A DNA stretch of 7,825 nucleotides from a virus (taxonomy: Duplodnaviria; Heunggongvirae; Uroviricota; Caudoviricetes). Of this stretch, positions 132 through 815 are shown piece by piece. The stretch's first letter is position 1, and each line of letters starts with the position of its first letter. The DNA is taken from IMG/VR virus record IMGVR_UViG_2706794687_000012. One strand, given 5' to 3'. Position numbers and translations under genes: made by a program. Below the pieces are notes generated by a model. It saw only the letters and a list, made by a program, of their open reading frames with translations, was not told the DNA's origin and searched no databases.

Positions 132-685
132 TTTTTAAGCTTTGAAGCTACTCGACCAGCGTTACTATTAGCATTGGTGACGTTGGTTTTTTCAGCTTCT
201 GTTAAGTCTGAATAGTCCAGCTTCCAAGCCTTATTACATTTAATCTGAGCATCGAGAATATCATTTCTGATAGCTGGAGCGTAACCGGATACATCGCTAA
301 TATTCATTAACTCTTTGCACGATAGCATAGGCGCGTTATTGCGTTCAGTGGTCACGTTACCTGCATTCTTCTTACTGGTCACACCACCGTCATTTGTGGT
401 AGCCGTTTTGCCAGTGGCTGCTGAAATATCAGTTTGACCTACGATTGCTTTAAAGTTAATTTCCTGAAAAGTTAGCTGGATACGAAGACCGTTAGAGATA
501 GTAACATCTTTAGAGGCTTTAAAGTTGGTAATAATGGAATCGTCAATTTTAATTCCATCTTTACAGATAACAGAAATAATCTGCTTCTGGTCACGCCAGT
601 TTTCCAGAGTGTCAATGAAGTTTTCTACTAATTGACCCTGACGAGTTAATAATAAGCTTCCTTCATAATTGCATGTTCTGTGTAG
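71..685 (-). CDS. Putative tail structural protein (distal tail or minor tail protein-like), long open frame with no canonical start codon until GTG at 382; probably the downstream part of a gene disrupted by a +1 frame change
   Basis: Minus-strand frame is open from the in-frame stop at 686-688 down to the stop at 71-73 (about 204 codons), far longer than chance in AT-rich DNA. The track reports only 71-382 because the first ATG/GTG/TTG is the GTG at 382. Lies immediately downstream of the tape measure gene. Translation ...[42 protein letters not shown]... looks like a folded protein. Function inferred from position only. Confidence 0.6.
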
Positions 686-815
686 TCACCTGCATAGGGC
701 TATCAAATTCCATGTTTTCAGTTGCTGATAAGGTTAAGAAGGCATCTACATTGTCTCTTAAGTGGAAATAGATGCCATCTTTGCCACTGTAACGAAGCTG
801 ATTAGTGTAAATCAT
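663..815 (-). CDS. Short ORF (50 aa) with strong RBS, likely the N-terminal part of the same tail gene as 71-685 (frame-disrupted)
   Basis: ATG at 815-813 preceded by AGGAGA 5 nt upstream (minus strand reads tcaaAGGAGAatttaATG); translation [50 protein letters not shown] then TGA at 665-663. Overlaps the long open frame 71-685 by 23 nt in the +1 frame. Confidence 0.5.

Follow-up and report, generated by a model that had tools for sequence, protein, structure and literature searches.

The tail gene that follows the tape measure protein (TMP) gene in the analysed window is very probably a pseudogene of a tail tube initiator gene, broken by an internal deletion and cut in addition by an insertion sequence (IS). 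The deletion, its position in a conserved domain, the IS insertions and the identity of the allele across assemblies were observed. The window is the whole stretch of 7,825 nt from IMG/VR virus record IMGVR_UViG_2706794687_000012. It contains three masked N runs at 4253-4562 (310 nt), 5094-5351 (258 nt), and 6912-7163 (252 nt), and outside them it is 100% identical to two Shigella sonnei chromosomes. The masked runs give rise to artificial X-containing ORFs, for instance in the Rep-like gene at 6533-7528; the S. sonnei loci L005 and L006 provide the sequence without masking.

One tail gene in two reading frames

The first part of the gene, ORF1, runs on the minus strand from ATG 815-813 to TGA 665-663, encodes 50 aa and has a strong ribosome-binding site (RBS) 6 nt ahead of its start codon (Table 1). 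The second frame is shifted by +1 from ORF1 and stays open for 204 codons from 685, after TGA 688-686, to 74, and its first ATG, GTG or TTG is the GTG at 382. The two frames overlap by 23 nt (685-663, CTACACAGAACATGCAATTATGA). At its far end the open +1 frame extends 16 codons into the IS, as far as TGA 73-71. Coordinates and overlap agree exactly, on re-reading the sequence, with those given in an earlier sequence-only reading of the window. An Rfam gathering scan of the window gave no match, and neither did a promoter and terminator consensus scan of positions 1-1100.

Table 1. Features of the split tail gene and its surroundings in the window
Feature	Coordinates	Strand	Remarks
Tape measure protein (TMP) gene, intact, 726 aa	972..3152	-	PF20155 TMP_3 and phrog_4036
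Spacer of 156 nt, TMP to tube-initiator gene	816..971	-	RBS AAGGAG at 827-822; two imperfect inverted repeats, 830-845/864-879 (16 nt, 88%) and 896-918/948-970 (23 nt, 78%)
ORF1, tube-initiator codons 1-49, junction-made Leu codon (668-666) and out-of-frame TGA (665-663)	663..815	-	
Deletion junction, 74 nt (CAGGG...GTTGGC) absent	667..668	-	Alignment with intact E. coli genes
Remainder of the 262-codon gene, 182 codons (75-256) in the +1 frame	122..667	-	
IS21-family (ISSso4-like) left end	1..121	.	Multi-copy sequence, adjoins istA/istB

Both ORFs matched the family phrog_3721 in colinear order, ORF1 over profile positions 1-51 (E 4.6e-26) and the second frame (ORF2) over positions 76-258 (E 1.7e-74); positions 52-75 of the profile were represented in neither. 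These matches identify the two ORFs, far beyond chance, as halves of one gene, in line with the single tail gene that the sequence-only reading had placed downstream of the TMP gene. The intact 262-aa protein of related islands aligned end to end with chain A of PDB 9ndy, the 265-aa 'Tube initiator protein (gp018)' (E 1e-115), and residues 1-180 were nearly identical. This entry comes from a cryo-EM study of Escherichia phage Bas63 (JohannRWettstein), a Felixounavirus. Bas63 gp18 has a tube-protein fold with a C-terminal extension of ~100 aa that spans the baseplate, and its hexamer provides the transition from the C3 hub to the C6 tube (PMC12609058). When both ORFs were aligned to a single homologous protein, a check proposed in the sequence-only reading, they were colinear on this one family and on one solved protein.

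The Pfam domain Dit_like (PF21821) was found on the intact protein at residues 30-147 (profile 2-119, 73 bits). On ORF2 the match covered only profile positions 65-118 (33 bits, cutoff 24.2), and the window copy, spread over two frames, has no complete Dit_like domain in one frame. By these domain matches, the window gene is classed as a pseudogene of the Dit_like/tube-initiator family and not as a functional member. In Felixounavirus garuso the homologue lies directly after the TMP gene, and the window gene is found in the same order, although the two genes abut in the phage and are 156 nt apart in the window. The island gene thus has its family, its domain and its position after the TMP gene in common with gp18 of Bas63. 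The differences are the loss of residues 50-74, the frameshift and the IS interruption in the window copy, a C-terminal part of ~80 residues that in the island proteins is unlike the phage version, and a location in a bacterial island instead of a phage genome. An AlphaFold2 model of an intact homologue, built from a 20-sequence alignment, reached a mean pLDDT of 39, which is too poor for mapping the deletion in three dimensions; the model was left unused, and 9ndy and the Pfam domain limits were taken in its place.

The 74-nt deletion and the insertion sequences

Alignment with the intact E. coli genes revealed a single 74-nt gap, located exactly at the frame change between window positions 668 and 667, and nothing else. 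The junction joins ACATGCAAT to TATGAAGG, and the gap lies between ...CAGAACATGCAAT and TATGAAGGAAGC... in the window. Since 74 nt correspond to 24 codons and 2 nt, the sequence downstream falls in the +1 frame; the Leu codon straddles the junction, and the first stop met out of frame is the TGA that ends ORF1. Only one placement of the deleted block is compatible with its flanking bases, so there is no microhomology, and a microhomology-mediated deletion was rejected. The sequence-only reading was therefore right that the gene is truly defective, but the single-base indel that it had offered as a cause has to be replaced by the absence of a 74-nt block relative to the intact homologues. Because 24-25 conserved residues were removed as well, a correction by one base, whether gained or lost, would not recover the protein.

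Intact versions of the gene were found in phages and in bacterial chromosomes. Felixounavirus records matched window positions 356-791 with 92-93% DNA identity in two pieces that, with the 74 nt included, span 510 nt in the phage, where the window has 436 nt. In chromosomal islands of E. coli, which share ~92% identity with the window, the gene is intact (262 aa, annotated as 'phage baseplate protein'). Of the 318 E. coli genomes in which a match was found, the 40 that were listed all retain the 74 nt, each covering 326-335 nt in two pieces against a query of 261 nt. A single ORF of 254-264 aa encodes 118 of the 120 best protein homologues; the other two have lengths of 224 and 251 aa. The deleted segment encodes residues 50-74, inside the tube-like Dit_like domain. 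These residues are identical in phage garuso and most island proteins, and many of the positions are invariant among 20 homologues, so that even a hypothetical fusion product would be without a conserved core segment.

In the same alignment, window positions 1-121 were unrelated to the tube-initiator homologues. A single E. coli genome can have as many as 34 copies of this sequence, which occurs both on chromosomes and on plasmids and contains repeated GATC...TTTGGCAT motifs. Five spaced (T/A)(T/A)TGGCAT motifs alternate in it with GATC-containing spacers and presumably represent the multiple terminal transposase-binding repeats of the IS21 family. In the S. sonnei loci that extend across the whole element, the IS measures ~2.6 kb between the two copies of a 7-bp target duplication (CTCAGTG), and the last codons of the gene, NPNKKY and the stop, come after it; this places the insertion after codon 256 with the last six codons cut off. 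The IS21 junction was present in every fetched S. sonnei locus that reaches that far, and the insertion between positions 121 and 122 is a second lesion, beyond what the sequence-only reading had described. In an APEC strain, where this IS inserted independently, CTGAGT likewise lies 2 nt beyond the IS end.

Further lesions were seen in the gene and the island. A polymorphic IS1 at window position 217-226, inside the remnant, was present in loci L004, L007-L009, and L015-L017 and absent from L005, L006, and L014; it could serve as a marker of S. sonnei lineages. In the S. sonnei island, an IS3-family element interrupts the recombinase at about residue 133 (L006 15694-18673), and the island is therefore probably immobile. 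Two E. coli proteins, P0123 and P0129, come from copies of the gene that are truncated differently, close to the same region; they end in ...QSGCVLP and ...QVDLTQQ and show independent disruptions of island tube-initiator genes. Pseudogene formation by deletion and IS insertion is established in IS-rich clonal pathogens such as Shigella. The island, with a blunt internal deletion and IS21-family, IS1, and IS3-family insertions within 10 kb, differs from this pattern in nothing essential, and the window gene is a typical example of it.

The most probable course of events starts from an ancestral gene for a Dit-like protein, which would have formed a tube-fold hexamer on the baseplate hub and started tube polymerisation around the TMP. 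An illegitimate 74-bp deletion would then have taken out the region of codons 50-74 (24 codons and 2 nt). Translation from the good RBS would now cover 49 native codons and one junction codon before the immediate out-of-frame TGA, and no translation would be expected of the 182 homologous codons that follow in the +1 frame without a start codon. The IS21-family element would have inserted after codon 256, earlier or later than the deletion, and the decay would have been fixed by descent in an IS-ridden clonal pathogen. We infer that the function of the gene was lost, on the basis of the conservation and the domain position of residues 50-74, and that its downstream part is untranslated. Two features run counter to a pseudogene. 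The strong RBS is kept, and the 50-aa N-terminal peptide could still be made; the upstream TMP gene is still intact, which may be due to no more than the young age of the S. sonnei clone.

Competing explanations and the allele in S. sonnei

The kept RBS and ORF1, downstream of an intact TMP gene, would also fit a retained function, in which the 50-aa peptide together with the TMP acts as a decoy or poison subunit against the assembly of Felixounavirus tails. The N-terminal sequence is nearly identical to that of the phage protein, and PLE satellites are known to manipulate the tail assembly of their helper (PMC12987554). We consider such a decoy highly improbable. Nothing points to selection, since in the clonal S. 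sonnei the allele has simply been passed on; the island bears three to four lesions, by IS or deletion, that arose independently, and the gene is truncated differently and independently in other E. coli strains, as expected for random decay. A search of ten island proteins against the PADLOC defence families gave no match.

Programmed +1 ribosomal frameshifting, which would yield a functional, shortened tail protein, is even less probable and was rejected. Programmed shifts are known from prfB (+1) and from the tail assembly chaperone G/GT (-1), and the window gene resembles such genes in its overlapping frames, its place in a tail-gene cluster and a downstream frame without a start codon. ORF1 ends in UUA UGA A, with a stop codon in the A site, which is a feature of some +1 frameshift sites. 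Known +1 motifs include CUU UGA, CCC UGA, UCC UGA, and CUU AGG; the codons of the overlap, ACU ACA CAG AAC AUG CAA UUA UGA, match no known motif, there is no homopolymer run in positions 685-663, and sequence inspection found no SD-like stimulator upstream. The claim of the sequence-only reading that a programmed-shift signal is missing was thus borne out. Moreover, the frame change was made by the deletion itself, and the two-frame layout is not conserved, given the single ORFs in nearly all of the best homologues. A fusion product would be without the largely invariant residues 50-74, and the 3' end of the gene is replaced by IS sequence. Compared with the programmed frameshift genes, the window gene thus has neither the motif nor the conserved layout.

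A sequencing or assembly error in a truly intact gene, the other cause put forward in the sequence-only reading, is next to impossible. A frame change without a homopolymer can arise by misassembly, and masked N runs are present in the window, but the difference is a 74-nt block and not a 1-nt miscall. The identical deletion junction was found in all 13 independent S. sonnei assemblies fetched (L004-L012 and L014-L017), several complete 4.8-Mb chromosomes included. A search with the exact TMP sequence yielded complete 4.8-Mb chromosomes as well as numerous draft contigs, and the protein is recorded as 'tape measure protein [Shigella sonnei]' in 5607 collection blocks. The C-terminus of the ORF1 product exists only through the deletion junction, and the 50-aa protein, named 'hypothetical protein [Shigella sonnei]', occurs in 2281 collection blocks and on at least 1000 contigs. 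Taken together, the junction in 13 of 13 assemblies and the number of ORF1 records show that the lesion is real, and the deletion allele is fixed in the S. sonnei lineage. Two separate genes, the second with an unusual start codon, have an equally negligible chance: both frames are long and open and gene callers annotate the first, but both are colinear on one family and one solved protein, no homologue is split at this place, and the first six codons of the +1 frame (685-668) are ORF1 sequence read out of frame.

The host island and its possible relation to Felixounavirus

The pseudogene is located in a decayed ~10-kb integrative island that nearly every sequenced S. sonnei carries (window 122-7825; L001 11980-20570; L002 10460-20437). 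The island encodes a large serine recombinase, the tube initiator, the TMP, about seven small proteins, a Rep-like HTH protein and a Dam methylase. Judged from this gene content, the host element is not a phage. According to the sequence-only reading, a defective distal tail gene would leave the element unable to build its own infectious tail, a consequence that does not apply to an island in which the TMP and the tube initiator are the only two tail genes and which never built a tail of its own. The intact recombinase of the E. coli islands has 507 aa with Resolvase, Recombinase, and Zn_ribbon_recom domains. The 317-aa HTH protein matched the replication-initiation PHROGs 8102 and 428 (E ~1e-10), with sub-threshold scores only in Pfam, and a search of it against IMG/VR viral contigs gave no relatives. 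Several of the small island proteins had no family match. On the minus strand, a 68-aa protein (3251-3457) and a protein of ~236-252 aa (3482-4240) sit at the TMP-chaperone position; both are unlike the two Felixounavirus TMP chaperones and had no Pfam, PHROG, or PADLOC family match.

The gene was matched in 318 of 5426 complete E. coli genomes (~6%), the share in which the island is taken to occur in intact form. In E. coli the island occupies different chromosomal sites, at yecE and near tonB, and in S. sonnei it lies between rutG and wrbA. Protein homologues are also present in Citrobacter, Salmonella, E. albertii, and E. fergusonii. In the searchable literature, no description of a Felixounavirus satellite or of a TMP-carrying E. 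coli island was found.

A sharp mosaic boundary separates window 356-791 from 972-3152: the tube-like part of the tube-initiator gene has 92-93% DNA identity to Felixounavirus, the adjacent TMP only 33% aa identity to that of garuso (735 aa), and the last ~80 aa of the tube initiator are unrelated to their phage counterpart. Such a boundary suggests a recent exchange with a phage or a strong constraint on the tube initiator to fit the phage hub and tube.

The V. cholerae PLE satellites encode their own TMP, a tail assembly chaperone and the baseplate hub protein BhuB, and build chimeric tails with parts of the phage ICP1 (PMC12987554, 2026). The island resembles PLE in being small and integrative, in its large serine recombinase and candidate replication initiator, and in having its own TMP together with one baseplate-core gene related to that of a virulent myophage. 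Its TMP is only 33% identical to the Felixounavirus protein, whereas the N-terminal 180 aa of its tube initiator are nearly identical. Unlike PLE, it pairs the TMP with a tube initiator in place of a hub protein, and a search for a chaperone among its proteins recognised none; a Felixounavirus would be its putative helper, and the S. sonnei copy is dead. The likeness is one of architecture. As a tentative reading, which we hold to be possible but not the favoured outcome, the islands of Escherichia, Shigella, Citrobacter, and Salmonella may form an undescribed ~10-kb family whose intact members would parasitise Felixounavirus by way of chimeric tails or tail sabotage, the S. sonnei copy being a dead and immobilised member.

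The split gene itself is nothing unusual, a pseudogene from a tail protein family that is known and has a solved structure, in an organism known for IS-mediated decay. It adds one more pseudogene to the IS-driven genome decay of S. sonnei and corrects a '+1 frameshift' to a 74-bp deletion. The 50-aa 'hypothetical protein' in thousands of S. sonnei genomes should be reannotated as a 5' fragment of a tube-initiator pseudogene. The intact island family, possibly an undescribed PLE-like satellite of Felixounavirus, is a more interesting lead than the split. If this relation is true, an island with a private TMP and a tube initiator nearly identical to that of the phage would be a tractable enterobacterial counterpart to the chimeric tails of PLE.
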